From: Candidatus Omnitrophota bacterium
GTDB lineage: Bacteria; Omnitrophota; Gorgyraeia; 2-01-FULL-45-10
Direction of reading: 5' to 3'
DNA: 64,000 nt
NCBI GenBank assembly: GCA_028715345.1
Contig: JAQUSB010000006.1
Span: forward strand, 4,096-68,095
Shown: positions 3,634 through 58,482 of the stretch, one piece after another
Position numbering within the stretch: the first letter of the stretch is position 1
How the letters are laid out: each line of letters opens with the position of its first letter
The notes under the pieces: model-generated
Database searches by the model: none
What the model saw: the letters and a program-made list of their open reading frames with translations, nothing else
What the model was told of the DNA's origin: nothing
Made by a program: the position numbers and the translations under genes

Positions 3634-3636
3634 CTT

Positions 3637-8436: not shown

Positions 8437-8437
8437 A

Positions 8438-16591: not shown

Positions 16592-16598
16592 ATCTTTC

Positions 16599-17204: not shown

Positions 17205-17217
17205 TTTATCGCTCCTC

Positions 17218-18438: not shown

Positions 18439-18466
18439 AGCCGATCTCCCTAAAGTTATCCACAAT

Positions 18467-23254: not shown

Positions 23255-23371
23255 TTTACCCTCCAATCTTGAAGTCACAACTTGTGACATCCTCCCATCT
23301 ATAAAGACGGTTTTCGCCCCGATTTGTTGCAGCCGATTTTAAAATAATTTTGGCGTCTATTTTTCCGGATG

Positions 23372-25194: not shown

Positions 25195-25703
25195 GGGTGA
25201 AACCCTATCTGCCGCTTCGCTTTTTCCGGCGGCGCCATTAATTGCCTTATAGCTTCAAATATTAACCCTATGTCAGAATCATGCTTATCTATTTTTCTTT
25301 CAAGCTCAGCCAATTTGTACGCAAGTTCTTTATGCGCACTTATAACCTCGCGCAACTTCATGAACGTTTTTATTATGCCTATATTTATGTTTATCGCTTT
25401 TTCGCTGTTCAAAACACTTGAAAGCATCGCTACACCATGTTCGGTAAAAGCATGCGGCAGTACATACGAATGCTTCATTCTTGTGAACTGGTGCCAATTT
25501 GGCACCAGTTCACCCATCTCTTTTTTGGTTAACTGAAACATAAATTCTCCAGGAAAGCGTTGAATATTACGCTTAACCTGCCTATTAAGATGCTTAGTTT
25601 TTACACCATATAATTCGGCTAAGTCTCTATCTATCATAACTTTAACACCTCTTATTACAAATATTTTCTTCTCGATAACTTCCTGTGGTACAAATACTTT
25701 CAT
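25191..25703 (-). CDS. ORF6N/KilA-N-like domain protein (paralog 2)
   Basis: Start placed at ATG 25701-25703 (MKVFVPQE...) with GGAGG 5 nt upstream. The ORF-finder's TTG start at 25757 is rejected. About 55-60% identical to paralog 1 over the core; last ~45 aa nearly identical. Its stop codon overlaps the thpR stop codon (convergent). Confidence 0.75.
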   Translation of the reverse strand: MKVFVPQEVIEKKIFVIRGVKVMIDRDLAELYGVKTKHLNRQVKRNIQRFPGEFMFQLTKKEMGELVPNWHQFTRMKHSYVLPHAFTEHGVAMLSSVLNSEKAININIGIIKTFMKLREVISAHKELAYKLAELERKIDKHDSDIGLIFEAIRQLMAPPEKAKRQIGFHP

Positions 25704-25802
25704 CTTTTCCTCCATTTTTTCTAAGGCAAAACTTGATGTTCCAATTTGGCACTTCAAGATGTCTTCACATATAAAGACGATTTTTCCGGTAGATTTATTG
25801 CG

Positions 25803-28900: not shown

Positions 28901-31900
28901 TACGCCCGTTCTCTCTTTGACTAGATCTACGAAGGCCTTTGCCGTATCCTTTGCGCGGCTAAGCTGGCTTGTAAGAATTACTATCTTTTCGCCGGATATT
29001 ATCCTGACTTCCAGCTGCCTGAACAATTCTATAGCTGCCGAGCCGGCCTGCTCCAGGCCTCTTTTATTCAGTTTATTTATCGGCTCATCGAGCATTCCCT
29101 GGAATATGCCTTCTGCGTTCCCGTACGTTTCTCCGTGCCTGACCATCCATAGGTCGAATTCGGGCTCTATGAACCCGGCCTCGCCGAATCTTATTCTGCC
29201 CGTACTGTCATCTACGAGAATGCTGCCCCCCATATCCTCCGGCCGCACTGCAGCGTAAGGATCGGTACCGGTTTTCCTTTGGGGCACGGATTTTTTCGGC
29301 GGCACAATCACAACTTCTTCGACAATCTTGTCTATACCCCCCTTGCGGTAGATCTCTGCTCTTACATCCAAATCGAACTCGCTTAACATTATGGCAATGT
29401 TTTTAACTAAAATAGACCGCTGTGAAATAGCCCGCGCCAATTCGTTCTTAAGGTTATCTTTACCTGTATCTATGCCTACGGCCTGCAGAAGAGCTTTAAC
29501 GTGGGGGTTATCCAAACAGACCTCTGCAAACATTCTCTCATCCAGCGTAGTCAGCCTTGTTAATGTCCTCATCGTTGCGTCTATTTCTGAAACGACATCT
29601 CCGCTGGCATTCGTGGCCATATGGTCTATCTCATGCGGTATGCTGAAATGTTCAAACTTTGCCCTGCGCGCGCTCGTAGCCCTGCCGGTAATAATATCGC
29701 TCACTTCTTTCTCCGAAACATAAATAATAAATCTGCCGTTAATAAGCCTTATGATGGAATCCGTAGGCAAATCGGGACTGATTGCGAATCCTATATCCCT
29801 GCCCGTCCCCGCCGCGTCATGCACAGCTTTAATATTGACTAAGTAGGACAATTCTTCCGGAGTAGGCTGCCTGTTTTTTACTGAATCCGCAAAAGCGCTG
29901 CTGCCTACCGAGACGACAAATGGTGAGCGGGATTCCCGCCTATGAAGGCTCACACCCACGAACAGGCATCTTATCTCATCTTCCGTATATGGAAATTTCA
30001 TAATTGATTTTTCCGGATCGTATTCCGAGCCAAATAGGTCATTACCGTTATCGATGAAATCCTCTCTTCGGAAAGGATTTTTCATGAAATGTCCGGCGAT
30101 CCTTTCATCAAGAAATACGCCTTCTATTTCGGTAAAAGAATCGGCGATACGCTTGTTAAATGAATCGATATTATCGACAAACTCCCTGGCAGCATCCGCT
30201 GATTCGGAAATATCTCCCACGTCAAAAATAGTCAAATCATCGTCTGATTTTCTTATCCCGTAATTTCCCACGATATTATGAGTATCGATGTCGACGACAC
30301 CTCTCTTATACATCGCGATAACGAGCCGTTTGAATTTATCGACATAACTTATCGCGCGCTTCAATTCATCGTCACTGCACCCTTTCCGCCCCAATGGTTT
30401 TAAATAATCTATAAGAGGCAAAACCTTTCTTTGCACGATCGCTACTTTGCTCTCAACGCGTCCCTGGGTTTCAGTATAAAAAACGAACGGTTTTTGCTGT
30501 GCGGCGCGCGTATCTATTATCATGAGATCCGCGGCAGGGCCCTGACCCAATCTCTTCATCGCTATCTTCGCGCCATCCAGCGAATAGATATCGGCATACG
30601 CCATCGCATGTTCACCGTTCGGCACTTTAGCCACAAACCCGTCTGCCGGATCTTCGTCTTTGTAGCAAATCAAGTATCTGCCGACACCTCCATAGCTAAG
30701 CATATCTGTCCATACAACGGCTTTCCCGGAGGTTTCAGCGGACGGTTTTAAATTTTCATGAACTTTCCTTATAGCGCTTACAAGGTATGCTGCATCTACT
30801 TCCAGCGCTTCTTCTATTCCTATCCGATTAAGAATATCTCTCTTCTCTCCGATATTCTTGGCCGTCTCCGCCTTTTCTATAACTTCGAAATCGACAGTAT
30901 TTAACTTCCTAATAAACCTGTCAAATACATCCCACCTGCTTTCCTTGCGATCCGATCGCCTTCTCGGGCGACCGCCAAAAGGCGAAGATGCCGGCCTGTC
31001 ATTATTGAGAAACTCGTCCCCACCCAGCGAGCTTCCGTGCTCCGCCGCCACGTCCGGTTCTGTTTTCGTCGCAGCCGGCTTTGTTGCGCTATATTCATCT
31101 GTCTTCTTTACAAAAACCATACTCGGGAAGGAAGGTACCATTGAATTCGGAACTTTGTAACCGGTAAATCGCGCCGCAGGAAAGAACTTTTCGAAGTAAT
31201 TATCGGCCGTTGTAAGATTAAGAATGATAAACATTGCGCCGGGCTTAGCCTGACCGGCAAAGTTCCTGTAAAGGGTCTCCTGTTCACGCGGAAAAGCGCC
31301 CCTATCCACATAGACGACTATATCGTATCCGCTCAGATCCTTCTTTGTAAAATCATTATCGTTGCGTTCAGCCGGAATATTAACTATGCCTTTACCGATA
31401 ATGTTTTCACCCTCGAGGGCCGTCCTGATTTTAGCGGTCAAACCCCTTAGTTTATCATCCAATTCCGATCCGTCGGCCAGACCGGCTCCGCAGACAGCCG
31501 CCGTAAATAGAACGTCACCTCTTCCCGAGCCGGCATCGAATAACTTCTTACCCTTTATGCTGACGGGCTGTAAATTCTCATCACACAGATTGGCGAACAA
31601 CTCCCGGAGAGCGTAGATATCCGAACCGACATAAATGCCGACATCGCCGTCGACGCCTGTCGCATCGCCTTGTTGATACGGAGACTGATATTCCGGTCTT
31701 GAAAGGACACTGGAAAGGCGGGCTATTTTTCCATCTTCGATCCTAGAAGCCGCTTTGGCCTCTTCGCCCTGCGTGTTTCGAGGCAGCGGTATTTGAATCT
31801 TAATAATGTGTCCTCCGGGTTTCGGCCCTTCATGCAAAATATCGTCCTGCCAGCCTACTGTAATAGACGCTCCTTCCGGCATTGCTATAGATTCCTCGAT

Positions 31901-34900
31901 CGTTTCCAGCGCATAAAACATCGCGGATACACCTCCGCCGGCTCCCGTTTTTACGCCTCTTGCCGAGTTGGGCGCTTTTTCACCGGGCCACGGCCTGTCT
32001 TTTGTCGTAAACCATTCTTTTGCGGTCAATTCTTCGGGCAATTTGTTAGAACCAGGACCCCATATTTCAAGACGAATCCCGTCATAAGGCTCATTGCATG
32101 GATAAATTCTGGCCACAACATAATTACTAGCCGTCCCTCCTCCGCCGAATGAATAGCGATATTCATGATGCTTTAAATTTGCGATTATGTTCATCAGTAC
32201 ATGTTTAAGGAATAATTCCATCGCCTCCGGCGCGCTCGCTTCGACTCCGGCATCCTTACGTAATTGAACGCTGAAATTATTTTCTTCAGCCGCTTTCATT
32301 ACTTTTTCCGCAAGCGGCTTACCGGTATCTATTTTAAACAGATCAACTTTGGTAAGGTCTATTTCTGTTTCGGCAAAAGCAGGCACAGGCCCTGTCTTGC
32401 GAGAGGTATGCACAGGAATGCCTGCGGCATCCGGCTCAATACGCGCATATTTACCGGGCTTCGGTATCGCCGTGTCTTTGCCTTCTGCCACAGCGGTTTG
32501 TTGCGGCGTTGCCGCCTCGGCTGGCTTCTCCGACACTGCGGCATCTTCCCGCAAAACAGCCTGCTTGGCCTCTTGCCATGCCTGTCTCCATACGGCCCTT
32601 TCTTTGCTCCAGTAAGCGTTAAATGCCTGGGCGCCTTTACTTTGGAAAATCATACTACGCATATCATCCGGCAGAACTCTGCCCAGGACACGCATCACGC
32701 CTGAAAGTTTTTCACTCGCATAGCCGAAACGCTTTTCTACATCCGTATACACCAGCCGCGCCCATATTTTACGTTCAGATGTCTTGAAGCGAACAATGCG
32801 AGCCTCGGGTATACCCATGATTATGATGTCTCTACCTGTCATAGGGGTAACCTTAAATATCGCCTTAGTAAGCTCCTCAAATGCCGCCGATGATGCCTCC
32901 TGATCAAGCTCCAGAGCTCTTTTGATACGACGCGCCACCTCATCTGGGCCTTTATAAAACATGTCTTCCAACCATCTTAATAAAAGTATTTCTTTCCTGC
33001 TATTAAGCGACAATTCGCCTTGCAACGCTTCTGTTATCGTTCCGCGGAAATCTCTATCTGCGAACATAGGCTCAGCCTGCAGGCATATATCATTTACCAT
33101 ACTGTTAAGTTTCGCGTCAGCTTCCTGCATAGATATGGCGGGAGCAGCCTTATCGTGGAATGCTTCATCCAAAGACACATCTTCAGGGACTGAATCTGTC
33201 CAATCTTTAGAGTCAGTCGGCAATAGTTTATATTGGATCACCCCTCTGCCTAACCCCGCCTCAGCCATTCTCACCTTATAAATAGCTTCCATCACTACTT
33301 GACCATACTGCCTGCGTATAAAGCCCGGTATATCAGGATATAGCCGAGCTACATTAAGTTCTGTTCTTAGTCTCGTAAATAAAGTCGGATTCTGTGAAAA
33401 TACATAGACTATGCGCGCCCAATCTTTATTTGCCTCGGGAGTGCCGAGGTTTTCCATAGATTTAAAAGCGGCGATAACACCTTCTCCGTCGGGTACGGCC
33501 AGGCCTTTCGCCATGGCTGCCGTCCATTTCATAAAATCGCGCCTTGAAACCTGCGGCTGCCAGACGCCCCTCGCTTCAGACGGCAGAGGATGCAGAGGGT
33601 TACCGCCGAAATCATCCAAAGCCTTAATTCGGCCTCGCATGGCTTGCGGAACAGCAGTTTTAGCTACGCTTAGCTGATTTGCGGCGCCTCCCTGCGGCTT
33701 CGCGGGTTCGGCCGAGGCAGCTATGGCCATATCTACGGCAGCTCTCATCTCCTTGAAACTTTTATACATACCACTTTTTATTTGGCTGATCATTTCGGCA
33801 AAAGGCAGCCAATCTCCTGAGCCGGATCCTGTTATATATTCTTTAAGCTTGTCAGGGTTTTCCACTCCGCCCGGAATATTCACCTCGCCGGTAGCGAGAA
33901 CCGCAAGTGTATCACCTATCTTCCATTGATATGTTTCAAAAACATTCTGTCTATCGCCTGAAATGAACCATGAACCAAAATCCGTAAGCCTGAACCCTCC
34001 CTCGGCCGTTACAAGCATATGGCTGATCTTATAATCACTATAAACAATGCCCTCTTCCGAAAGCTTATCGGCGGCATCGATAAACTCTTTCACAGCCCCC
34101 AGCACCGTTTCAGGTTTTTTGCCCCTCGACCAAGTCAGTATGTCTTCGCCTTCGATCCATTCCATGGCATACCAACTGTTGTCCGGCGCCGCGTCTATAA
34201 AACGCGGAATAAATTTATATCCGCGCGTGCTGAGTCTTTTGGCCATAGCTATTTCATTAATAAAATCGGCTTCTATCAGTTTGACATTATATTTAATCGC
34301 TACTTTTGAGCTAGCCCCTATATCTTCCGCTTCATATATATTAGACATGGCATGCTGCCTGGGGCCCAAGCCGGTTATAACGAAAGAACGAGCCTGGCCT
34401 TTGACAGTTTGGCCGGGAATAAATTTTTCGCCTTTACCTTCACCCGGCATCTGCGCCCGGACGACTGCATTATCGCCGGATGGAACCGGAGCAGCCTCTT
34501 TATTTTGCACAGCAGCGCCAGATCTCGATAAGCGGTTAGCGATAAATTCACCCCACTTTTCTCCGTAGATCGGCGCGTTGGCCCTGATATTTGTCTTAAA
34601 TATTTCGACGGCCCCGTGATAGTGTTTAATACGCTCATCACATAATTTTATTATTGTTTCACGCTGCGCGTCGTCTGTATGTTTTGCGAATTCCCTTAAC
34701 GCAGCTATCGCTTTTTCATTTTGCACGATCCTTTCCCTCAATGATCGCTCTAAATTTTCATATTCTTCCCCGCCTTCTTTAGCTTTCCGGATCTTCTCAA
34801 GAAGCTCATTTTCAGTGTCAATTGAGTCCATCCTTCTGGCTATTAAATAATCCACCTGCCTGCCAAGGTCTAGTTTATTCTGTGCCGCGTTCTTTCTTGT

Positions 34901-52900: not shown

Positions 52901-55900
52901 CGCTTCACTCAAAATACGTGATCCGTATTTTTTATCGCCCACTATACCGGCGGTCCGATGCGTTTCCTCACATAATCGCAAATAGGCATTGAGTACATAT
53001 CTGGCTCCATCCTTTACATTCCGGGTAACGGGGTCGTCTTTGTATTCTTTAAATAGCTGATACGATCTGGACAATGTGACCGATGCGTTATAGTATTTAC
53101 CTGCCCTGACGAATGAGAGGGCTATTTTATTTTGGATATTCATCATCGGCTTTACCTGTGCTTTTAGATTTGTAGTAGCAGGCTTTAATTCATTCAATAA
53201 ACGGCAGGCGCGGCCAAGCATCTTATCCGCCTTATAAAGCATATCCAGCCGCGCTTTATCTTTCATATTCATTTCCCAAAAAATATTACCCAGATTATTA
53301 TGAGTAATTATGAAGTGATGGGCGTTTGACCTAATGGCTTCGAATGCTTCCTTGTTAGGCTTCGATCCTTCGTATATTTCACAGGCTGTGTCAAGAGCCG
53401 CTTCGGCGCCTTCAGGGTCTGTCTGGGCAAGCGTAACCGCGATATTCTGGTACCCGGCCATTACAAATGCCGCTTCCTTATTCATACCCACTGCCGCAGG
53501 GTCATCCTTATACAGGTCGAATATCCTGCGGGCTTTCTCAACCATCAATCGCGCCGTCTTTATATCTTTGCCTTTGATAATGGTAGCCAGATCGCAATAA
53601 CAGCCTTCGATATATTGAAGCTGCGGCTTGATCTCTTCCACCAGGGCATCCTCTTTTCTGATCTTTAAAAATAAGAATATTCGATACGCTCTGTCGAGAA
53701 GCTCTTTTGTTTCCGGATAATTCTCACCGCCCCTTGCCCTCATAAGATCATTTGCCAGGAGAGAAGACGCCTTGGCAATAAGCGGCCCTTTCGCCCTCGT
53801 GATATCGTTGTAAAGCCCTATCCTGAATTCCGCGAACAACCTGTACATCCTGTCGACAACGATCTTTTCTCTGTCAAGCTGTCCTTTTTTACTAAGGCGG
53901 ATTAATAAACTCCTAAGGGTGTCTATAACGTGACCGACCTCTTTTCTTACATCGGCAGTTTCCGGGTCGTCTTTATTCTTATCCAATATAGAACAGGCCT
54001 CTTCTATAGCGGCGTATGCCTCATCAAATTTACCCGGCGCAATAAGGGCTATCGCTTTTTTGTTTAATGCAACGATGGCTTTCCTCGGGGCAGAATGCCT
54101 GGGCGATGTTTTCTTTACCGGCTCGGTCAAGAGGTTCCCGCTTATTGATACACCTGCAACAACGGCAAGCCACGGTACGGCCTCTTTTAGAAATTCATTA
54201 AATCCAGGGATGAGGCCCAATGCTATCAATATTTTTATGATACTTACGCCCAGGATCGCAAACACCAGCACCGCTTTCGCTGTCATACCTATGCCTAAAG
54301 CCGCGCTCTCGGATTTGATAAAGTCGGTAAGGTTCCCCCGCTTCGTCTTGAGCCAATCGAAAAGTCTCGGGAATGCGATAACAGGAACAATGCCTACCAT
54401 AATGACGGGCGTAGGGCCTTTTTTGGGGGTTACCGGCAGACGAAATGTAAAGGTAGTGCCTCTTTCGGGTCCGTCATATACAGCGCTCGCCTTAACACTG
54501 CCTCTTTTTTGTATCATTTCTCTTATAATATTTAAACCGCTGCCTATGCGATCCGGGGCTTTATCTGATCCTACTATGGCGTCTTCGTTGAAAAGCCTGA
54601 CTTTTTCCGGTTCCATTCCGGGGCCGTTATCCGATATAGTCAACACGATCTCATTCCCGTCCATAACCGCATCTATGGTTACACGGCCGCCGTCTATTTC
54701 GGCTACTTTCTCGCGGGCATTGCGCAATACATTGAGCACCGCCCTGAATATCTCGCTCTTAACGCCAAATGCGGCAATATTGCCGGATGATATTTCACAC
54801 CTGATATTATGACGGCGAAGCTCCCAATGAACAGCCACATCCAGTATCTCATTGATATCGAATTCATAGGGTTGATCTGCAGTACCAAGTATCCACGCTA
54901 CTGTCTTTACGCTATATTCGAAGTCGCGCGGGTCTACAGGTTTTTCCTCACCGGGATATTGAGAATCATATTCGTTCAATAGCCTGCCGATGTTATCGTC
55001 CGACAGGAGAGGCAGAAGTCCCCGGCACGATCCCGTAAAATTACGTATATCAGATTCCATCTTCTCCCTGTTCTCTCCCGTCGCGTTGTACCAGCCTGCG
55101 TCTATACTTATAAGGCGCAGGCAGTCGCAATATGCTGTAATGGCACTGCAATATGCGAGGATTTCCCTATTTTGCGTCTTACTCATCTGGACAAATTCGG
55201 CCAATGTAAGAATGGTCCTCATGCAGGAGTCGAAATCGTGGCCGAATTCTTTTACTTTCTCAACCATAATGCCATAATCATCCCCGCGTTGACCGTGTGG
55301 CCTGCTTATGATGGCGGCGATAAAATCGATGCAAGCTCTCAGCTTCCTATCTAGCAAATCTTTCAGTCCCGGGAAAAGTGTCAGCACTATAAGCCCCAGC
55401 ATAAGCGGCCCGGAACGCATCCTCTTTTTGCTCAGTACATCCCACACAGAATCTATGTCGGAACGATTGGATGCTATGTCATCACGGAAGACCGAAGCGT
55501 CCTGAGAAGCAACCACTTTACACCTGTCGAAATCGAAGCGTTGACCCAGCTCCTTTACGCTGAATCCGCTGCGTGTAAGCTGGTCGGGATTGGCGGCATA
55601 AGACAGGTACACGCCGCCGGTTCTCATTACACGCTTCGTCTCTTCCAGCCATAACGGTATCGTGTGATTTATAAAACCGGCATTGGTTATCCCGCCCAGT
55701 GAATCGTCGATCACATAATTAGACATTTCCGCATCGAACCGTCCGCCGTCAAAACATGACATTCTATCGAAACTTGTATGCGCAAGAACTATTTTATCCT
55801 TTCCTCGTATATCCCGGCGCGCCTCCAGCATATTTTTTATTTCGAAAAGGTTGTTCCAGTTAATATCGGCTACGGTAATTTCTGCATCGGGGAAAACATG

Positions 55901-58048
55901 CCTCAAAGCTACTATCTCCTGGATGTGCCTGCCGGGCCCTCTTAATAATATCCTGCCGCTATTTATCCTCCTTACTACATCCGGTTTCAGGGCATCGACC
56001 AAGATCTCTGTATACGCGATCGCCAATTCTTCGCTTATCTCAAAACCAAAGATAACAGCCTCGGCATTAGTATCTTTAACTATAGTCTCATAGTAAGGCC
56101 GGGGCGATAATCCAGGATCATAGCCTGTTATGATCTTAATATCTCCGGAGTCGACATATCCTTTAGCCGCGGAAGTAAATACTGCTTCGCAGGCATTGTA
56201 GATCAGGCTCGCCCATTCCTGCTTCGCACTTATTACCTGCACAATAAGAGTCTCCGGCTTCATTTGTAATTCGGACATTGTATCCTTAAGCCATGCCGAC
56301 CTATCGCAGTTATCCAGCAGGTCCCTCGCCAAAGCGGGTATGCCCACTTTTGGCCCATCATCATACTCCCATAAATACAGGCGTTTCATGGCCCCGGCAT
56401 GGTTTCCTTCCGCTACCATTTGCTGTAAAGGCGTTATTAAACGTTCAACCGCCGCCTCGACATAACCGGCCTGAAAAGACTTTATGTAATCAAAAACTTC
56501 TTTAAATGCCTGCTTTCTCCATTTCAATATTTCATCCAAATGTTCTATCCAGCCTTCAGGGGGTTGGCAGGATTCGAATATGCCGGGACGAATACCGGAA
56601 AGATATTTATACAACTCCTCGGTCGATTTAAAAGAAGGGTGATCTATATTTAACGTATCATGAATAAATTTATCCGCCTCGGCAACTGTCCATTGAGTTT
56701 TATTGTCGGGATCATCCGGTTTAGGAGCATTACTGAAATACGCCGTCGCCGCAATACCTGAAAATATACCTATGAGAATAGCTCCTATGGCAAGAACACT
56801 GCTCCCTGACAATTTGCCTCCCGCGGCGCCGAGCGTAGCCGCGAGAAGATCGCTCTGCAAGATCAGCACAAGGGCTGTGGCAAATATACCGTAAAGCGTA
56901 AATCTATTAAGTATGGCCGCGGCTATTCTTCTCCAGAAAGGAGACGCGCTTACGGCCGTGTCAGGTTTCTGAACTTCAGGCGCCGGAGAAGATGCGGCGT
57001 TAATTGCAGGCGAAAATTTTTGTAGCGCAGGGGCATCGAACGCGGAAATTATTTCTCCGTAGTAATGGTTCCCCTTACCCCACACGCCTTTTATTTGCGC
57101 TTCACGTCTTTTCAAATAGTTTTTATGCGACGCTACTGCATCTTTTACGCTTACAAACCAGAATTTCGCGATGCCCGCTCTCCATAATTCCATAAGAGCA
57201 AGGTCCATAAGGAGAGTGCCTGTGCGCTCTTCTCTATAAGCAGGCAATACCGCCCTGTAAGCTATATACCCTACCTCTCCGGTGTCGCCTTTATCGATAG
57301 TATAGGCCGTAAAACCTATCACACGGCCGCCCTTGTCGACAGCAAGTACCACGGTATTATTTTTAAGCATAGAAAGGAATTTTTCTCTTAAGCCTCTATC
57401 CGCACCTTCCCTGGAGAGATACCATATATTAAACAGCTTCGTGGTGAGATTATCGACATCGTCCTCATATTGCTTCATATAGTCGCCGGGACGATAGTAG
57501 GAAATGTCGTGCTTCCGGGCGGGTTCTGTTTGTTCATGCGGCGGCGTAGCTTTTTTAGGCGCCGGCAATTTCCCGGTCTTGAGATATTGTATCCGGATGG
57601 GACTTCCCTCAGGCATTTCTAGCTCTTTGATGGGCTCGGTCGAATATTTGGACGGCCCGGCATTGCGGTCGTAGAACCTGAGCATATTTCCGCCGGCTAA
57701 CGTCACGAATATTTCGGTTTCACCTTCGGAGTAAGGCGTGGCCCTGAAATTCTCATTTTCGAGCTTATTCAGGACGCTCCTTACGGCAGGCAATTGGACA
57801 GTGGCAAGAGGTAATCTCGATTTTATTATTTGATAAAGATATGCGGCATAAGCATCATCTGAGGCATGCTTAAATAAAGATTCGGGAGCGAGTTTACTAT
57901 TTTCGGACCTCGAGCATGAGATCGGATCGGGATGGGCCCAGGCAATATCCTGAGCAAGGAAAGTCACGACCAGGATCGACGCTATGATCCTGACCGCTTT
58001 CGGAAACCTGCGTGGTAGTGGTTTTTCTGCGCTCGCTTCGCTATTCAT
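25904..58048 (-). CDS. Giant multidomain secreted/membrane protein (~10,714 aa from ATG 58048)
   Basis: Single uninterrupted reading frame of 32.2 kb. The ORF-finder extends it to a TTG at 58108.
Domains (plus-strand nt): signal peptide (~57950-58020); GNAT fold (~57050-57400); SAM-MTase folds (~55560-55990, 50480-50960, 48400-48780, 41800-42180, 41140-41560, 31220-31570); GHKL ATPase (~54430-54880); HD domain (~38060-38400); kinase-like domains (~36600-37100, 33750-34400, 30000-30600); histidine phosphatase RHGETYGN (~28560-29170).
TM clusters (plus-strand nt): 56720-56930, 54180-54420, 51250-51520, 47040-47470, 44590-44900, 43030-43470, 37560-37720. Confidence 0.85.
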   Translation of the reverse strand: MNSEASAEKPLPRRFPKAVRIIASILVVTFLAQDIAWAHPDPISCSRSENSKLAPESLFKHASDDAYAAYLYQIIKSRLPLATVQLPAVRSVLNKLENENFRATPYSEGETEIFVTLAGGNMLRFYDRNAGPSKYSTEPIKELEMPEGSPIRIQYLKTGKLPAPKKATPPHEQTEPARKHDISYYRPGDYMKQYEDDVDNLTTKLFNIWYLSREGADRGLREKFLSMLKNNTVVLAVDKGGRVIGFTAYTIDKGDTGEVGYIAYRAVLPAYREERTGTLLMDLALMELWRAGIAKFWFVSVKDAVASHKNYLKRREAQIKGVWGKGNHYYGEIISAFDAPALQKFSPAINAASSPAPEVQKPDTAVSASPFWRRIAAAILNRFTLYGIFATALVLILQSDLLAATLGAAGGKLSGSSVLAIGAILIGIFSGIAATAYFSNAPKPDDPDNKTQWTVAEADKFIHDTLNIDHPSFKSTEELYKYLSGIRPGIFESCQPPEGWIEHLDEILKWRKQAFKEVFDYIKSFQAGYVEAAVERLITPLQQMVAEGNHAGAMKRLYLWEYDDGPKVGIPALARDLLDNCDRSAWLKDTMSELQMKPETLIVQVISAKQEWASLIYNACEAVFTSAAKGYVDSGDIKIITGYDPGLSPRPYYETIVKDTNAEAVIFGFEISEELAIAYTEILVDALKPDVVRRINSGRILLRGPGRHIQEIVALRHVFPDAEITVADINWNNLFEIKNMLEARRDIRGKDKIVLAHTSFDRMSCFDGGRFDAEMSNYVIDDSLGGITNAGFINHTIPLWLEETKRVMRTGGVYLSYAANPDQLTRSGFSVKELGQRFDFDRCKVVASQDASVFRDDIASNRSDIDSVWDVLSKKRMRSGPLMLGLIVLTLFPGLKDLLDRKLRACIDFIAAIISRPHGQRGDDYGIMVEKVKEFGHDFDSCMRTILTLAEFVQMSKTQNREILAYCSAITAYCDCLRLISIDAGWYNATGENREKMESDIRNFTGSCRGLLPLLSDDNIGRLLNEYDSQYPGEEKPVDPRDFEYSVKTVAWILGTADQPYEFDINEILDVAVHWELRRHNIRCEISSGNIAAFGVKSEIFRAVLNVLRNAREKVAEIDGGRVTIDAVMDGNEIVLTISDNGPGMEPEKVRLFNEDAIVGSDKAPDRIGSGLNIIREMIQKRGSVKASAVYDGPERGTTFTFRLPVTPKKGPTPVIMVGIVPVIAFPRLFDWLKTKRGNLTDFIKSESAALGIGMTAKAVLVFAILGVSIIKILIALGLIPGFNEFLKEAVPWLAVVAGVSISGNLLTEPVKKTSPRHSAPRKAIVALNKKAIALIAPGKFDEAYAAIEEACSILDKNKDDPETADVRKEVGHVIDTLRSLLIRLSKKGQLDREKIVVDRMYRLFAEFRIGLYNDITRAKGPLIAKASSLLANDLMRARGGENYPETKELLDRAYRIFLFLKIRKEDALVEEIKPQLQYIEGCYCDLATIIKGKDIKTARLMVEKARRIFDLYKDDPAAVGMNKEAAFVMAGYQNIAVTLAQTDPEGAEAALDTACEIYEGSKPNKEAFEAIRSNAHHFIITHNNLGNIFWEMNMKDKARLDMLYKADKMLGRACRLLNELKPATTNLKAQVKPMMNIQNKIALSFVRAGKYYNASVTLSRSYQLFKEYKDDPVTRNVKDGARYVLNAYLRLCEETHRTAGIVGDKKYGSRILSEAANVAKDIVMIPYLDPDVYARADDILRIADPNRAGAVADVEYPDLVMADAKARRRLLSSAEMYGTPLYVLRNYFKGVREAARAQKMDPEEIKRDINEEYKKYGRTAPVEGPREGFIRILSDKDIQDAVAPLPDFLLKDITYRRIDPMEGDIGAISFQDQLPDGVIYRGEIAIPDIPRDLLASAVQAMIDTEVAPSRPLLSEADQVEFLRETYKLVIAHEVGEVFSHAMYPHLDAWFKTVFLYREKKSLERISRSGASDPRHELCDSMMLYFHPGHPLLRKYSISDEEKSVIAELLHIASQRPHSAYFVSNHVDKFSERVEKIPAVEYVMHNHIRFKYLFNIKLIEEAAAAAGLMLKHEKDKAEGQLDIYDGENKCGYIGISRSFGRGHAVSSHTIIEIQPDIGIPPLAKVEKFINYLNEKTMSDNAAAAKGVLWILKRPVIWLAGKLGKQIDDDEYDDEIAPIIEEGIFTGLPLALYPNSFGVFILFRLAFIALHLFSARSPAQFIEKTAIPSLISVIVTLPAIIAINATGVSAIAANVSAVLVAMLIHSAINMLVPDINQKLKSLGIKFRIEKAAIKKKGKAADSLDQAGPEQEKEPAENTVHETGYSALADFIDIAVNRGHQHLILENGTIFKRGMDWDDLSAAIDELDVKGKSVLYIAEGPDLIPLFMLATGARQVVVYDIGNRYIIEEWKGVVSTHRRFFGRSGIDLEEALSIHAGSISDTVKTANIGSQFDRIVCVNIINPRSYKSEGWVDKAPGITGRAGLISLVNIIKSSLNKDGGKIYYNMAGPAEPDIDAEFRKAVCGDIFDIKGSKESFGWRYYSLKDEEYRSAPAHIIELSKKSGAKPQAAEAGATSPAIVNVELEAGRHILSAVLADVDTNNPLKRNGIKFRDFTDDKGKYKYEVWGVQHEIETGGSSYSPLIIEMRLNSATEMIECIFTRSRDGVQTVRMAEMNSAGYYVLGGAIKKMHKDYSSYDKVGTAIRVAIGKVKDMIDNRGLIEELARHNGISSGEISRILNASYERMEAYLKDGLLYEFEAQKIRERGKAPKLIFCDERGLYVCSYILDPEKGNDALAKTLPLMVLKALSRSIAPSPAAAKKFMKIMDPEDELDVVQMQRDMGRKEAVIMDPEPLFPVEEIISTAFELYMESGYIRKPALKDVVERLNLRRSNDRKMLLTTAQYKLKKLIISGTISAGDLQISDTDFLRKAVAGKPDDDEMDGDDEDDEYGDENENIGPSEPVTVKKGKTGQRRKAGGGKSRPAWWSGRRGAQWVPAAVYDAAAGALIGAPGFEIGREMARTAQRFGAKAFLRMDEISGQGRTDTGNEVLQNDKEAEVNTEQNEFLALIWVSRRFSKTEEMFGGEAAPAIRGVMQEARSAGHSPRGLVIGAGAGHYIYDMRKQFPELSLDFINKNNIRLHERHYRLLGPDYQEFTDYFFKNIREHDVDRGLPFPDGSFDVLIITFESLRYMRQKNMILRECKRVLKKGGIAFIEGVECFDVCDGSGRVMDPGELCDWLNAASEKPQYRHYEAQGSGRKMYNLRIDNLYPEVSFPEMEPVSEPEVNIVDCRPAGKLPPTYICHYRIPGNQSLAVTADDRQIGKLDIDILRKLGCDSHFIEAAEYFNSVSGEPLTWPKIITLFELYRGDRQNPEYTDEIKQQRISSAEESLGYILELVNHKYANGENVIAYAGDIYAHIIQREIFIGGGRRADFSGEDVLLRGFDTIPDLSGGNTHPASGHHRLAWFLMNYLLIGNGYTPLYLNKSEWEQEGVLGAVGSRKIADVLKARVKKIKHAAVPVKRNAESESGFASRPPSGIGWFYSLALLPPLEAWVRVCWYEMGKGIGGLAGGWIGLIAASAILILLHDVNTKRYVEIYKYHNGKAPSAAGTAMAVFIMPSVVALISLWLTYVYAAAPASFLYKEYLIYHVLANIIVILHNKIFPKTPLMPASPQLFRTPISGEQIAKLRALMEQAELPEEKFLVMMREQFGITSLDRIPDEILYIHEIRRMIKEYGAEERFMRSQGYTIRSVPPASISETEITEGREWLIAAINEEARIVGIVKANWGADRVDFGAETLLEKMLLDGNRSDALNRLSALRRLEPGELNSDTAGKILKAMREKADMFAPKVFYDRICKDGIVPPGEEMRARVWDELADRLKSSMPGWDRKLTPAVLYRVLDVLDAARESLRCYKEGLNALPVSYVRRMVKRLAVGRDKQYAASDTYFVNMDSEDEALVDEQEKAWREASNHRKKIENAAAKRLRKEADAIKSRKDQAAIAGKWRAIPLNIQAGADMRRYANRVKGIGAKTAGLLKDGSLRARAIIYDYPEYSDSFELLTSTSDNETNSAERLANGNIVFVVRGRPQIRNMDTGAYVSLADGEGNYISNANCITVDEKESIFAAAGDGRVFEYGPDGRFIKEYDTADKEMEAEPASMAVFERKLYYWDYARQSIMVMDLTSGEKERVGSSLYGGNGYDRTECMEVHLSIDRVNRILIVAGHPEVYVMPVSIVNFFDIDRKAFVNDKKASAEGAANPAAAVFNYIINQPVGIMHGRDGTGTRFYIAEETVSSPARIHLYTETAEGFREAGYIPVPFGKVFGLTVSPDSGSLTILGYLKHYEVKKCLGVYELSAEAVNTLLRKTETGRDIVGMIPWVSYLFDKKGWDKRGQSRFEQKWFGIGNLLLSAALAYFSDYNLLLALCGSIAVTWTLFFAAHAISAPGVRGPPLSDALAIALLNAVPLFVVSILYLAAVLPLAAAVILAALIYYRTSGIHHEQNLKYFKYEQEIFAKRLAPSRLDVTRRQFDFTAMNVMYGAGSMLSRFSLLRPMGEVIKTYAESRTDSTLLDEPMPIRARTNIEGYDAIDRAFRAQAESGNVRVPLNNQMINIFLVSQGMLLKEWHRIIDLPENKSLKDKVAAAEEKARDKVRKRHPSWQRYLAAELNESGISISERRKFLPYIQIGFVNKETRRELTETGCFNEVIAKILPQQLEVERALGSMPHQDLAELDARIGRGEGLNLPEIKRKALRQLEKDIVRLKVFLADMRDGKYFNGIRGDVIDYLLIETEIGRLENNLKVLTSTTAPSEARPQGAVKKMAAGRVPQNPLKSTDGPRSYLKPAGDWLTSDGMPEDLGGGTPRPAPQDRLPGSRVKEDGESANLLSGKIDKAPVVSLEDMDDDRPSGSIALSSSSGISWFSSLIIMPLLEEGVRVMGHNMGEGVGGIIGGLAGVIFASLLLVLLHDVNVPRYVSLYKANNNKEPSASDTIQGVFTAPIAVMLISLWWTFKSPGAPAICLYAGYVITHVIVNIIIMVYNKLFPKEPLMPASLKIEHERYQEGHHKVYFTIKSGPHRLGDIKYDLDPVNYPGKIYVNYLYVYDETRKEDVRFRLMKLVLEDAKGYKKDVVMPSIVKKEIKAYAKIAKRLNIGIKLEGGRLVFMASVPLPDKQKTASKSNPDPYLDIRRSPDNGEDRVFPRREESRPGMAVNAIGMYGPAKKAIRIEKRLGELENDKMPKLKVIELREWLTAQQIMEAGMKYRVTSPDFNTEDAYVSTSIAPQENTRYHFVGNFIEEAMKTDTGPYSFKPDLKGANVLFIGPGTNPKAITRLIKQYPEIGAIHLVDVSWDVFYALDYFLDEQFHGKPTPKIYGYRMNVLELPEEFTGMMDIVTERCIFDTVKAMPFDRGQAAQARKEIGRILKPGGIHISVEPFAITRYPEDPFVRFVGKFSLNVPYIDDISGTVEETAYVHIKMAPENRQTGPTVTKPITASVIADAMDRELGTYDWMRSNTAYMIDGIGIGQDDDVLCIGSGPLADHAVFSAIKGARVDLCQPPYYEIRDIGAIEQTKCFEGKVNFYKRLMEKIFGYDMIGERIDTGTYRGRVQDVDLPKNHYSKIFLLNVLDELGDSERNDLIAAVLPLSKPDGVILLSALSRDKEPQMIGSLIRIGKMCGYEIKETGRIFEYDKRVYELKVIRADSRAQVKTEGRKAAVGGGRQRPWPGRHGAQWAAAAASAVIKGDILGTLGREIGNEMIRTARNFGARAFRSVEDLQGGGAPAYGEASAIATLNVDMHGKPAGAMASILLSAGLNFREDLKIEYSMIERGGGVSPIKNRFDAGGIMLNTSDLVPGARIKIFVNSNKLSSRACQVIADHIAAAAALYKEEGLFDAVPVKGTVIALAESNGTFIEALKKEGVDIARYHVQPNYKHWLHPTERNDMKELQDGYRADPGVSHAEISDFIKSIEGDLFAALKEEGVSDLQSRESGVISVLLAELLSERFNVPIGGNDEVRIEVTPGLYKNKDAPDIYHAWAAVYTGNEKPALYIDAAFGRFGSEYKDTIIVGPYSKKDRHLKDMRTFFTEILTELGMSIADAEALSGMPQGRRTEQRIVAAYKEYLRAESMRRGEALFPSGTAERDLIERLKKRLAMPAPRDLFASGGKVMPGPISSRRISWQEALARKNDLLKIISRHEGRAALYVHIGGKYVADPHEREVYLANLKTALREETGVVFVIGGDYENLQDVETRAVIVDVPSVTPYNPTPSIGVRVDLDTTEGCRPAWKKLVVAMREMGVEEISPFGGELAEFSSSGGVRVADEDLSGCVGSALYFLQDDFPVKVFPQLCAASSGNRHINVRSSIGLGSYRIRAPAHSDLLADTASMAPVSRPAPLIPVAYTSSGFLNRYLQENPSNKGWLYHRTWIGVIWLILSRNEVSLRRPTWFLNRVPLLEVAKGMGLGRKILETPSIALAFDAKKLVDLGISFSPDFGVISNKAVPLSALTDDSKKELIKALVALSFISPDFPLPDSQKIASVLGFEDVNEVSRLLEEALPGPDSESTALRESLNELLLWGGRGGQYDIRKTLDFVSSDRLGYAKAFTAAGRKLYGHTLIVARNFERSGMAGDLPKIPNLDVPALFRLTLMLHDIGKPMAEDEGDKNRQYTYTPQIIRKLMNRLKFTPAEIDFVVSLIEKDSIGLMVRGIKSVDEAFAEIKDMAIKSGVGLENFFKILTIFYISDVSAYGFGQSITPDGRHIRNDHYNALAKRVSEAAAEKNAAVKKKIIAAYGLEGELSQSVTAENKGLDGLGESGSAPIFNIIKILPLALVALAVYYNYGLVPAAAVMTAAFAGILAWNMLGDYYLRWASEAWQKARLDPEVNKGRVESYYNTLAVVAAAAERLRIGELPLKEKLTPPLNIGILNEDFSLLWCIDNLQEAIRALYPDSPLISEPAPYGSAVVRASDLHAYLEQVLRVISNDKGGQPKITRAPAKIDISRLNTGQAIILGGKEYEVEKRNFAHGGDDKKLVVEVDTGLRFIIEPIEGREKEIELCGGFLKHPCHAKVHAVYKDEGVYLMPDYGTLSLAEHIRYSALEGMPLREYLSARVNEIIWLYEAVSEMHSKGIAHGAVDAERPHILYSSGLPHIVDYEIPYRDGERDYRMCLYGDLRALLGIAECVAKEAYQAYGENDDVKRLTAEIRSMISELPFLPDSSAAVTSSGRIIKQLSGYLDSIGMVRLPAPSYGKNALMRTYPAGRQISPYKTSSGAVWTFGIGDTMDVGPEEQVRIVVGNPPEETDPWGESDIGRTNTPRPAPKTENASAPGAEYDWIKTEAKKHASIIYEFLASEMRRLDAKQEYMVFIGGAGYKLYVLARFLAPDFGLDPDADIKYLDFPRTIYERSPKDGILSYLRKNKNIVGNDERHARMVDVMWDGHAIDRLNEYLEILYPGRFAPLERNKNCILFARHPDANLDIPGFNDTVGFDEIKQKNIEDAAIWLEASLRAPARYVGGVDTAGNIIPCTINRGIISQQPAKLELAPARIDAVGEEIELSVLQEEIRSLHIKEKTGRESLPAPDRDAKPQVEKAQAAAAGVPDKPEMQPGKEGMDRRAFLEAGLMSPFQISPLGHIIVGKVASSSGIPAEAIEAVYTDLFGKCLPETTVEYWDRIQEDHAYAYVDAYPAEIAKLQKETGRSIGESISAYIARRLLSRGDALIAKIKRYRDIVASGEGPIELYPILLDRLTGNTIYDSTRKNAAQNKLDLGRQVDYLIARRMDSIDTENELLEKIRKAKEGGEEYENLERSLRERIVQNEKAIAALREFAKHTDDAQRETIIKLCDERIKHYHGAVEIFKTNIRANAPIYGEKWGEFIANRLSRSGAAVQNKEAAPVPSGDNAVVRAQMPGEGKGEKFIPGQTVKGQARSFVITGLGPRQHAMSNIYEAEDIGASSKVAIKYNVKLIEADFINEIAMAKRLSTRGYKFIPRFIDAAPDNSWYAMEWIEGEDILTWSRGKKPETVLGAVKEFIDAADKLSEEGIVYSDYKISHMLVTAEGGFRLTDFGSWFISGDRQNVFETYQWKIGDTLAVLATGEVNIPGGVENPDKLKEYITGSGSGDWLPFAEMISQIKSGMYKSFKEMRAAVDMAIAASAEPAKPQGGAANQLSVAKTAVPQAMRGRIKALDDFGGNPLHPLPSEARGVWQPQVSRRDFMKWTAAMAKGLAVPDGEGVIAAFKSMENLGTPEANKDWARIVYVFSQNPTLFTRLRTELNVARLYPDIPGFIRRQYGQVVMEAIYKVRMAEAGLGRGVIQYKLLPTDSKDWTDSVPEDVSLDEAFHDKAAPAISMQEADAKLNSMVNDICLQAEPMFADRDFRGTITEALQGELSLNSRKEILLLRWLEDMFYKGPDEVARRIKRALELDQEASSAAFEELTKAIFKVTPMTGRDIIIMGIPEARIVRFKTSERKIWARLVYTDVEKRFGYASEKLSGVMRVLGRVLPDDMRSMIFQSKGAQAFNAYWSKERAVWRQAWQEAKQAVLREDAAVSEKPAEAATPQQTAVAEGKDTAIPKPGKYARIEPDAAGIPVHTSRKTGPVPAFAETEIDLTKVDLFKIDTGKPLAEKVMKAAEENNFSVQLRKDAGVEASAPEAMELFLKHVLMNIIANLKHHEYRYSFGGGGTASNYVVARIYPCNEPYDGIRLEIWGPGSNKLPEELTAKEWFTTKDRPWPGEKAPNSARGVKTGAGGGVSAMFYALETIEESIAMPEGASITVGWQDDILHEGPKPGGHIIKIQIPLPRNTQGEEAKAASRIEDGKIARLSSVLSRPEYQSPYQQGDATGVDGDVGIYVGSDIYALRELFANLCDENLQPVSIKGKKLFDAGSGRGDVLFTAAVCGAGLADGSELDDKLRGLTAKIRTALEGENIIGKGIVNIPAERNDNDFTKKDLSGYDIVVYVDRGAFPREQETLYRNFAGQAKPGAMFIILNLTTADNYFEKFFPAARFTGYKVPNSMVPSFPSMVFVKKTDEYSATKPAATKTEPDVAAEHGSSLGGDEFLNNDRPASSPFGGRPRRRSDRKESRWDVFDRFIRKLNTVDFEVIEKAETAKNIGEKRDILNRIGIEEALEVDAAYLVSAIRKVHENLKPSAETSGKAVVWTDMLSYGGVGRYLICYKDEDPADGFVAKVPNGEHAMAYADIYSLDGAKIAMKRLGQGPAADLMIIDTRAAQQKPFVFYTETQGRVESKVAIVQRKVLPLIDYLKPLGRKGCSDDELKRAISYVDKFKRLVIAMYKRGVVDIDTHNIVGNYGIRKSDDDLTIFDVGDISESADAAREFVDNIDSFNKRIADSFTEIEGVFLDERIAGHFMKNPFRREDFIDNGNDLFGSEYDPEKSIMKFPYTEDEIRCLFVGVSLHRRESRSPFVVSVGSSAFADSVKNRQPTPEELSYLVNIKAVHDAAGTGRDIGFAISPDLPTDSIIRLINGRFIIYVSEKEVSDIITGRATSARRAKFEHFSIPHEIDHMATNASGDVVSEIDATMRTLTRLTTLDERMFAEVCLDNPHVKALLQAVGIDTGKDNLKNELARAISQRSILVKNIAIMLSEFDLDVRAEIYRKGGIDKIVEEVVIVPPKKSVPQRKTGTDPYAAVRPEDMGGSILVDDSTGRIRFGEAGFIEPEFDLWMVRHGETYGNAEGIFQGMLDEPINKLNKRGLEQAGSAAIELFRQLEVRIISGEKIVILTSQLSRAKDTAKAFVDLVKERTGVVVETAPDELLNEINFGIWDNKREDQLSAEEAALATRYRKGLDATIRPKGGQSFIDMIKRSRDLMIKLNSQYKNRTVVAFGHGTQTSAMRAAMGDRNLLDASSQIDWRKNMLPNATPVLYKNKALLRRTYVALFTTVTDINTPGLLIHGHVAAHLDPEDRVDSLLSIFREGIKPWNDLPPRFKKYDFVGRGDPSKVSLSMVGKLGYSSTSACNSIWGAPDPALKWRIDSDELWKDHKFDLALIISPYYLRQHINDFTACGEFFKDTHVMSSNYRDETGSIYSNIRYEEAHLVKDPTHDEVHTKYVPPEAIVGVIVYDQYAEEFRDFFVKEFPDRSLRVFNQDGKLLFDIDASMPAAALGRGSSQVGDDTTKISEAHKVDGAMRRDDGAKHRAIFPQAGGPTAPDTQALREMQSPLRSGGALRFASGMPEKPEEASGIPGVVKFARARYTRDPFSYIELHFGVGKPLSSECPSIAWTISASYDEWRIEFYDTNELSTQDNMPSLVAGISLAQKSKGIRLESRSAIPDLHPLRKTLPIICEKLGSLAHLLGISFVDNTGIAPAAPSPAPSAGAEELIWNENVTEQTLAEMVEGGRFEYNKAIGNEKQVTAYRFIAKLIQDTVNKRHPVLNQSTRDIVNGNINWLFWGVMTPDELQKEIGDPDAISGNISRGYSNSAEVDFNALCDLMDIGTEVYLTLSRAIIKKYGAANAESTGVWQSSAWIINFRDQLDNAYRHIRSSPEAEEFIKKAMAKVDSFMKSFYPVEPSPEQEPSAASERRSSDGEDDLADETQIVTDAAGANAGDEVSDMITAADRRFRESLAATPLPAGAQIVFSERLFETEDAEHLRGLVGNDKPVRVGSFDEIKEIASREDVDRTAGEGTAACIMTRDEFTRLCKQRGLEQNPEKLKATILVISKLEGTNYLYLEAVADLAKAMMEKDTARIKMGMNFLFGDVQVTDEILTDSLALALSVILRFKPVTKIDVEDRLNHYKKMVEDALMAA

Positions 58049-58092
58049 TTGCCCTATATAATGTTTTATTCTTTTAACAAGACAAAAATAAA

Positions 58093-58131
58093 AAGACCAG
58101 ATCGCCAAGCGTCTCTAGGCTATCTGGTCTT
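58093..58131 (-). other. Perfect 10-bp inverted repeat hairpin plus T-tract in the giant-gene leader (terminator/attenuator-like)
   Basis: AAGACCAGAT (58093-58102) and ATCTGGTCTT (58122-58131) flank a 19-nt loop. On the minus strand the hairpin is followed directly by UUUAUUUUUGUCUUGUU (58072-58092), about 25 nt upstream of ATG 58046-58048. Confidence 0.5.
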
Positions 58132-58293: not shown

Positions 58294-58482
58294 CTATTCC
58301 TCGCCCTTTTTGAAGAATTTTGTCCTGATACCGCTGAAATCCTCGATGAATATTCTGCAGAGGTAATTGATCACTTCGCTCACTTCCCTGTTATTCTCGG
58401 TGCACATTCCTTTTATCTTCTCTTCGATAGATTTACTCGTCCTGCACCCCAGGAACCCATCGCATCTCTTTAACTTTTTCAT
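58294..58482 (-). CDS. Small Lys-rich, 4-Cys protein (62 aa) directly upstream of the giant gene
   Basis: ATG 58480-58482 preceded by perfect AGGAGG (58486-58491) at 3-nt spacing. MKKLKRCDGFLGCRTSK...GMCTENN...YLCRIF. The ORF-finder's longer TTG-initiated version is rejected. Same strand as the giant gene. Confidence 0.45.
   Translation of the reverse strand: MKKLKRCDGFLGCRTSKSIEEKIKGMCTENNREVSEVINYLCRIFIEDFSGIRTKFFKKGEE

Follow-up and report, generated by a model that had tools for sequence, protein, structure and literature searches.

Giant proteins of the Omnitrophota have been described as chains in which methyltransferases (MTases) are mixed with other enzymes and with many transmembrane helices (West-Roberts et al., 10.1101/2023.11.21.568195). 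In that work, AlphaFold2 (AF2) had to be run on fragments to recognize some of the domains, including an S-adenosylmethionine (SAM)-dependent MTase fold; a divergent SecA_DEAD helicase domain was reported in "most" giants, and proteolytic processing was raised as possible (10.1101/2023.11.21.568195). Nielsen and Lui (2026) considered 916 proteins of at least 10 kaa (thousand amino acids) and found that 80% of the sequence clusters were singletons, that 65% of the Pfam-positive long proteins repeat a Pfam domain, and that PF08241, PF02518, and PF00583 (+HAD) form a recurrent "Module 1" (bioRxiv 10.64898/2026.06.07.730766). PF08241 is among the commonest domains in the giant multi-enzyme proteins of the Omnitrophota (bioRxiv 10.64898/2026.06.07.730766 and 10.1101/2023.11.21.568195).

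We analyzed a 64,000-nucleotide (nt) stretch of DNA, hereafter the window, from a Candidatus Omnitrophota bacterium (GenBank assembly GCA_028715345.1, contig JAQUSB010000006.1, positions 4,096 to 68,095). One giant open reading frame (ORF) on the minus strand, at 25904..58108, encodes 10,734 amino acids (aa) counted from a TTG codon. A preliminary description of the window had claimed that six class-I SAM-dependent MTase folds are scattered through this polypeptide. We consider it very probable that the gene encodes a membrane-tethered multi-enzyme protein of the Omnitrophota type, with at least five class-I MTase-fold domains from at least four families.

Four sites with the class-I methyltransferase fold

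All 13 sequence strings that had been quoted for the six sites were found, where they had been placed, in one frame of one ORF. We scanned the whole protein with Pfam and named the six candidate sites S1 to S6; the sites and all other features of the giant protein are on the minus strand. S3 (motif span aa 3121-3228; domain aa 3122-3231, 48416..48745) is a canonical class-I SAM-dependent MTase domain of the Methyltransf_11/25 type. It matches PF08241 (Methyltransf_11) with an E value of 1e-9 and 39.3 bits, the gathering cutoff being 21.2, and it also matches PF13649 (Methyltransf_25), PF08242 (Methyltransf_12), and PF13847 (Methyltransf_31), with UbiE/MenG-type matches in NCBIfam and MTase matches in the PDB. 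S3 had been singled out as the most canonical site and is indeed the sole one above the Pfam threshold.

S4 (motif span aa 5317-5429; domain aa 5290-5444, 41777..42241) and S5 (motif span aa 5528-5651; domain aa 5501-5707, 40988..41608) were placed through their relatives. An exhaustive HMMER search of 1.84 billion representative proteins, with aa 5250-5720 as the query, retrieved 90 proteins when the E value was limited to 1e-3, and 43 of these also passed a limit of 1e-10. These relatives split cleanly into an S4-type family (∼50) and an S5-type family (∼40). Both families occur in many long proteins (3,000 to 7,700 aa) as well as in short ORFs, part of which are probably fragments cut off at contig ends. 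Family hidden Markov models (HMMs), built from the relatives without any window sequence, score S4 with 160 bits and S5 with 200 bits.

We then compared the family profiles by HHalign with mt7, a profile of seven unrelated MTases (matches of the S3 search) that likewise contains no window sequence. Both families aligned with mt7 at 96.5% probability and with E values of ∼1e-9 (8e-10 for the S4 family); the alignments span 110 columns and reach from motif I as far as motif III. S3 aligned with the S4 family at 94%, and the S4 and S5 families aligned with each other at 91.8%. Individual members point the same way: Pfam matches in the S4 family are to Methyltransf_25 in 13/31 members and to Methyltransf_11 in 12/31, seven of 30 S5-family members match Methyltransf_23, and one S4-family member carries the NCBI name "class I SAM-dependent methyltransferase." Against the PDB, matches of the S4-family profile are almost all SAM-dependent MTases (CheR, LahSB, and NNMT), and those of the S5-family profile are MTases at the top (PIMT and PEAMT), with unrelated proteins lower in the list.

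In the S5 family, beta2 is followed by a conserved VD(I/L)xQP, and a helical insert separates beta2 from beta3. The predicted structure shows the features of the class-I fold: an alpha/beta/alpha sandwich whose sheet has seven strands and ends C-terminally in an antiparallel beta6-beta7 hairpin. Among the structures nearest to S5 are MTases that act on small molecules, tRNA, lipids, and proteins.

S1 (motif span aa 720-835; domain aa ∼715-859, 55532..55966) is a divergent class-I MTase-like domain that was reached through S4. The S4-family HMM scores it with 29.8 bits over aa 712-840, and a jackhmmer search seeded with S1 converges on the S4 family. By this HMM match and this convergence, S1 is an old, divergent paralog of the S4 family. 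S1 and S4 are ∼19% identical and the other sites fall into families related only at the superfamily level, which bears out the earlier view that the copies are too divergent to be recent duplicates.

Whole-protein scans recover the same sites

We scanned every 240-aa tile of the giant protein by HHalign against profiles devoid of window sequences. With mt7, the four best-ranked tiles were those of S3 (score of 110, 98.8%), S1 (score of 40, 75 to 77%, 97 columns from motif I to motif III), S4 (score of 39, 72%, 111 columns), and S6 (score of 30, 25%, motif I only). Relative to 150 composition-matched shuffles of each segment, z-scores against mt7 were 11.5 for S4, 9.8 for S1, 6.3 for S6, 2.5 for S5, and 0.2 for S2. 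From the S4 family, the S5 family, and mt7, we also assembled a 51-sequence superfamily profile that is free of window sequences. It ranked S4 (99.8%), S5 (99.7%), S3 (97.1%), S1 (96.2%, z=23), S6 (85%), and S2 (10%) above the best unrelated tile (4%). The ranks of S4 and S5 follow partly from construction, as their homologs are in the profile, and those of S3, S1, S6, and S2 are independent of it. The six best nonoverlapping MTase-like sites of the whole protein are thus exactly S1 to S6, all in the correct motif register, with the S2 tile barely above background (score of 23.3 versus 20.6 for the best unrelated tile).

A composite regular expression for motif I, the acidic beta2 end, and motif III gave 8 matches versus 1.2 ± 1.2 in 200 shuffles; this ad hoc pattern missed S4 and caught unrelated positions, and it was superseded by the profile scans. 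A seventh candidate, at aa 6667-6714, was rejected as background (z=3.8 with one profile, ≤1.6 with the other two, and 2.9% with the superfamily profile).

The residues expected to contact SAM were inspected in all sites. The glycine-rich motif I loop after beta1 reads LLRGPGRH in S1, VIGAGAGH in S3, LFIGPGTN in S4, LCIGSGPL in S5, and FDAGSGRG in S6. The acidic end of beta2, placed by sequence and profile register, lies in ITVAD (S1), VVVYD (S2), LSLD (S3), IHLVD (S4), ARVD (S5), and GSELD (S6), and its position was confirmed structurally for S5 only. Motif III reads VMRTGGVYL in S1 and AKPGAMFIIL in S6, and S2 has a motif III-like NKDGGKIYY. Going by these motifs, both SAM-holding features, a G-x-G loop and an acid at the end of beta2, are retained in S1, S3, S4, S5, and S6, and S2 retains the acidic residue with a degenerate loop, IAEGPD, that has a single glycine.

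A probable fifth domain and a doubtful sixth

S6 (motif span aa 8856-8963; domain aa 8852-8986, 31151..31555) is probably an MTase domain without a detectable family, and its motif I, LFDAGSGRGD, is of the canonical form. It aligned with the superfamily profile at 85% with an E value of 6e-6 over 132 columns (z=11.3), a score reached by 0/200 shuffles, and the alignment runs from KGKKLFDAGSGRGD via GSELD and YDIVV to AKPGAMFIILN. A phmmer search of the PDB matched S6 to MmtN (7vvv, E=1.2e-3 to 0.002) and to Dot1 (7k6p, E=0.18), over ∼50 to 60 residues that cover the helix before motif I, motif I itself, and beta2. S6 has no match to the Pfam DOT1 model.

S2 (motif span aa 2392-2522; candidate Rossmann/MTase-like segment at aa ∼2375-2526, 50531..50986) had no MTase match in Pfam, NCBIfam, or the PDB, its weak PDB matches being unrelated proteins, and it had no homolog among the retrieved giant proteins. 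Its z-scores were 2.5 to 2.9 against the S4 and S5 families and 3.6 against the superfamily profile, with 1/200 shuffles reaching the observed score. S2 aligns in register at motif I, beta2, and beta4 with three profiles, and its secondary structure, from a low-confidence AF2 prediction, appears to alternate between strand and helix. S2 may be a sixth, degenerate copy. The earlier claim of six MTase folds is therefore upheld by profile evidence for S1, S3, S4, S5, and S6 and is left without a significant match for S2. By sequence, the five domains group into a Methyltransf_11 type (S3), one divergent family (S4 and S1), a second divergent family (S5), and a singleton (S6).

Relatives of the giant protein

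As judged from sequence searches, the giant protein is nearly an orphan. A word-seeded search of 5.8 billion proteins with a 5,000-aa query yielded one weak match, to a metagenome protein (P0001), through a transmembrane-hairpin module alone (described below). The five weak segments, concatenated, had no match at E≤10 in a word-seeded search, and S3 alone matched seven ordinary small MTases with 31 to 47% identity in partial alignments. Pattern scans of genome and metagenome contig collections revealed no relative of the giant protein.

Many long proteins carry the S4 or S5 family, and the named ones are all from Candidatus Omnitrophota. We counted MTase-like domains with three HMMs in 28 related long proteins and found one domain in 19, two in six, and three in three. 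Five or six MTase domains are thus at the high end among related long proteins and are not different in kind. The preliminary description had called six MTases in one chain highly unusual, which was overstated, since giant multi-enzyme proteins of the Omnitrophota were already described, domain repetition is the rule among them, and relatives have one to three MTase domains.

Other domains and repeats of the giant protein

Pfam detected further enzyme domains in the chain. A GNAT acetyltransferase domain (PF00583, E=1.3e-6) lies at aa 247-331 (57116..57370), a HATPase_c domain of the histidine-kinase/GyrB/Hsp90-like ATPase type (PF02518, E=1.1e-13) at aa 1117-1227 (54428..54760), and a histidine phosphatase domain, His_Phos_1 (PF00300, E=6.8e-25), at aa 9653-9828 (28625..29152). 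A weak protein kinase-like region at aa 7922-8046 (33971..34345) matches PF00069 with an E value of 1.2e-5 and 25.4 bits, below the cutoff of 31.7, and a weak TPR was also detected. With His_Phos_1, the kinase-like region, and HATPase_c in one chain, phospho-transfer chemistry stands beside methyl and acetyl transfer. Pfam detected no peptidase, SecA_DEAD, glycosyltransferase, glycoside hydrolase, or NUDIX domain in the giant protein, and no HAD or HD domain was detected in it.

A transmembrane-hairpin module of ∼170 aa occurs in two copies that are 47 to 56% identical, at aa 3516-3684 (47057..47563; hydropathy peaks at aa 3580-3598 and 3624-3642) and at aa 4885-5053 (42950..43456), with invariant motifs such as LLHDVN..RYV and NK.FPK.PLMPAS. 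The second copy is the only part in common with P0001, an otherwise unrelated protein of 5,362 aa, in which the module corresponds to aa 441-595. The module has the look of a membrane anchor that giant proteins reuse as a cassette; a pattern scan of metagenome contigs found no further copies. In total, we counted ∼16 hydrophobic segments in the giant protein, mostly paired, by a crude method (Kyte-Doolittle peaks of ≥1.7).

The chain contains a second internal repeat of ∼70 aa with 46% identity between its copies at aa 2986-3056 (48941-49153) and aa 5708-5776 (40781-40987) and the consensus GGG.xRP.W.GRxGAQW...G.EIG.EM.RTA..FGA.AF. The first of these copies is situated shortly upstream of S3, and the second follows directly downstream of S5.

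Start of the gene and genomic context

The first ATG of the giant ORF is at aa 21 (nt 58048), from which the protein has 10,714 aa, and it is followed by MNSEASAEKPLPRRFPKAVRIIASILVVTFLAQDIAWAHP, a signal-peptide/anchor-like N terminus. The N-terminal part (57940-58048, aa 21-56) resembles a cleavable Sec signal peptide (AWA-HP). In the 5' leader of the gene (58084-58129 and 58263), a sigma-70-like promoter (TTGACT..17..TATTCT) is followed downstream by a terminator-like hairpin with a T-run (GACCAGAT...ATCTGGTC TTTTTATTTTT), which overlaps the listed TTG. Since the TTG start is overlapped by this hairpin, the ATG at 58048 is likely the true start. Upstream of the giant gene, a small ORF of 62 aa (58294-58482, minus strand) has its own promoter and an AGGAGG ribosome-binding site. 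The leader hairpin could terminate transcription of this ORF or could act as an attenuator. A search of the leader against Rfam gave no match above noise.

Outside the giant gene, the window encodes housekeeping functions. One flank contains the trp and his operons and the genes for AlaRS, RecX, RecA, CinA, and LigT, and the other contains those for PgpA, PgsA, RodZ, FtsK, and a radical-SAM enzyme of the MiaB-like type. The MiaB-like neighbor has its two best genome matches in metagenome-assembled genomes of Candidatus Omnitrophota (51% and 47% identity), and this identity of a single neighboring gene, together with synteny, is the basis of the taxonomic placement from the sequence itself. One of these two genomes has a syntenic locus (JAKQAH010000139.1, 10656-17308) that shares the order FtsK-RodZ-MiaB-like-PgsA-PgpA ... 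LigT-CinA with positions 23388-59046 of the window and in which ∼5 kb of ordinary genes, with no giant gene, stand in place of the 32-kb giant gene. Because that locus has other genes at this position, the giant gene occupies a variable slot between conserved flanks.

Two paralogous ORF6N-domain genes on the minus strand (22718-23290 and 25191-25757) bracket CinA-LigT and adjoin the 3' end of the giant gene; they have no counterpart in the syntenic locus. The ORF6N domain is common in antirepressor-like proteins of phages and mobile elements. The presence of these genes in the window, without counterparts in the syntenic locus, suggests that the variable region with the giant gene has a mobile-element history. 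Downstream of AlaRS-RecX-RecA, the minus strand carries complete-looking trp (trpE-G-D-C-F-B-A, 7254-14118) and his (hisD-B-H-A-F, 14485-18465) clusters, one directly behind the other; the genome therefore keeps amino acid biosynthesis.

Interpretation

We propose that hydrophobic helix pairs tether the chain to the membrane at intervals and that independent globular enzyme domains would lie between the anchors. In each of S1, S3, S4, S5, and S6, the glycine loop and the beta2 acidic residue would hold SAM, as in the known fold, and each domain would methylate its own substrate. The MTase domains would work beside the GNAT acetyltransferase, the HATPase_c ATPase, the kinase-like region, and the histidine phosphatase, in a chain presumably translated as a single polypeptide and located in the cytoplasm. 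The domains were probably brought together as separate modules, by accretion, and did not arise through recent duplication within the chain.

Several observations weigh against a membrane-tethered protein with five or more MTase domains. S1, S2, S4, S5, and S6, scanned singly at E≤10, had no MTase match in Pfam or NCBIfam and so do not belong to PF08241 as currently modeled. S1, S2, S4, and S5, alone, had none among PDB sequences by phmmer either, S6 being the only one of the five Pfam-negative segments that matched. The preliminary description had named the lack of Methyltransf_11/12/23/25 matches as evidence against its claim; such a lack is literally what single scans gave for five of the six segments, and the picture was overturned once family profiles were built. 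We conclude that the single-segment null scans are uninformative rather than negative. S6 has no detectable homologs, which leaves single-sequence-to-profile comparisons as its support, and S2 stays at 7.6% probability against the superfamily profile. Only S5 has a confident three-dimensional model; an AF2 run without alignment on a 1,198-aa concatenation of the six segments had a mean predicted local distance difference test score of 32 and left the positive control S3 unfolded too, so that it carries no weight either way.

The predicted topology also raises a difficulty. If a signal peptide followed by helix pairs is taken at face value, the chain up to a three-helix cluster at aa 2216-2292, with S1, GNAT, and HATPase_c, would lie outside the cytoplasm, and this conflicts with their need for SAM, acetyl coenzyme A, and ATP because these cofactors are lacking there. 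Either the N terminus is an uncleaved anchor inserted the other way round, or the crude hydropathy scan missed helices or called too many. Finally, many published giants have a SecA-like domain and neighboring secretion genes, a feature that is frequent and not universal; Pfam found no SecA-like domain here, and there are no genes for type II secretion or carbohydrate import among the neighbors of the giant gene in the window.

How many of the sites are working enzymes can be read in several ways, and S2 is where they diverge most. Its resemblance to MTases could be a chance likeness of motifs inside another alpha/beta domain, a reading to which we give somewhat less than an even chance: the z-score of 0.2 against the Methyltransf_11-type profile, probabilities of ≤10% against all profiles, the one shuffle that equaled its score, and the unrelated PDB matches are what such a coincidence would produce, but S2 is also the best of ∼165 background tiles when it is counted among them, and its motifs fall in register with three profiles. 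At the other extreme, all six sites including S2 could be functional SAM-dependent MTases, each with a different class of substrate. That S1 to S6 are the top six positions in register, all with an acidic beta2 end, that their families are mutually very divergent, and that S2 alternates between strand and helix as expected would fit, yet we find this unlikely, given the absence of a significant match and the single glycine in the loop of S2, the membership of S1 and S4 in one family that could share a type of substrate, and folds from which specificity is not legible, as illustrated by the variety of structures near S5. Alternatively, some MTase-like domains, in the first place S2 and perhaps S1, could be pseudo-enzymes whose fold is kept as a scaffold, a sensor of SAM or S-adenosylhomocysteine, or a substrate-binding module, so that catalysis would be limited to a part of the copies. 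The degenerate loop of S2, the sequence AHTSFDRM between beta3 and beta4 of S1 where the S4-family consensus is GYxxNxLELP, the lack of a conserved KPGG in motif III of the S5 family, and the extreme divergence without close homologs, consistent with relaxed constraint, all lean that way. We nevertheless hold this reading to be rather unlikely, since S1, S3, S4, S5, and S6 keep the G-x-G loop and the beta2 acid, and strongly conserved positions across at least 30 members in the S4 and S5 families indicate purifying selection. Moreover, glycine N-methyltransferase is active despite an alanine at the first position of its loop.

The remaining alternatives concern the chain as a whole. The giant ORF could be a polyprotein precursor or an assembly artefact, such that the MTases would not act within one chain; proteolytic processing of giants has been considered (10.1101/2023.11.21.568195), and there is no close homolog against which the integrity of the gene could be checked. 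We regard this as improbable: a stop-free frame of 32 kb is not explicable by chance at a GC content of 48%, base composition and strand skew are uniform along the whole giant ORF, no peptidase domain was detected, and many independent contigs encode long multi-domain proteins of a comparable kind. A more ambitious reading of the membrane-tethered multi-enzyme protein, to which we attach only slight credence, is a covalent-modification assembly line in which five or six MTases, acetyltransferase, kinase-like domain, ATPase, and phosphatase, held in fixed order along the membrane by repeated helix-hairpin anchors, act in sequence on one polymeric substrate. Examples of such a substrate would be a polymer of the cell envelope or of prey, or else the giant protein. 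If true, the protein would represent a new type of machine, one that tailors its substrate in multiple steps without a template, and not a loose collection of unrelated enzymes.

With its membrane anchors and at least five MTase-fold domains, the giant protein illustrates how much of the enzyme content of giant proteins escapes standard annotation, as Pfam sees a single MTase in it. It also defines two recurrent, Pfam-invisible MTase families (S4/S1 type and S5 type) in dozens of long proteins of the Omnitrophota, which could become new profile models. At 10.7 kaa, well mapped, and with many SAM-dependent and acetyl- or phospho-transfer domains, it is a good test case for the role of giant Omnitrophota proteins. 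No current view is overturned by these results, which extend the phenomenon described in the two preprints.

Comparison with known systems

Phosphoethanolamine N-methyltransferases of plants and nematodes (e.g., PDB 5wp4 and 4krh) have two MTase domains per chain. They resemble the giant protein in having more than one class-I MTase domain, and S5 has some of its best PDB matches to them, both by profile and by fold. Their two domains are in tandem, in a soluble protein of ∼490 aa, and catalyze consecutive reactions of a single pathway, whereas the giant protein has five or six domains of unrelated families spread over 8,000 residues, with other enzymes and membrane anchors in between. For S6, the best sequence matches of solved structure, the methionine S-methyltransferase MmtN (7vvv; PMC9135737) and the H3K79 MTase Dot1 (7k6p), are uninformative on its substrate. 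With respect to the Methyltransf_11/25/12/23 families (UbiE/MenG-like small-molecule MTases), which are free-standing enzymes of 200 to 300 aa, the MTase sites differ in being embedded in a giant chain, and no Pfam or NCBIfam model picks up S1, S4, S5, or S6, which have 8 to 18% identity to solved MTases.

The Archaeovorin-type giants share with the giant protein a membrane-associated chain, the combination of MTases with other enzymes, TPR-type repeats, and domains visible only by structure prediction or profiles, but they are much longer (≥30 kaa versus 10.7 kaa). The closest likeness is to the Module 1 class: the protein exceeds 10,000 aa, PF08241, PF02518, and PF00583 were all detected in its one chain, it has multiple transmembrane helices and a repeated domain type, and it is unique in sequence with Omnitrophota-like neighbors. 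It differs from the Module 1 class in that no HAD or HD domain accompanies the module and in the number of MTase-fold domains, five or six, of which Pfam sees one, versus one to three in the 28 related long proteins.

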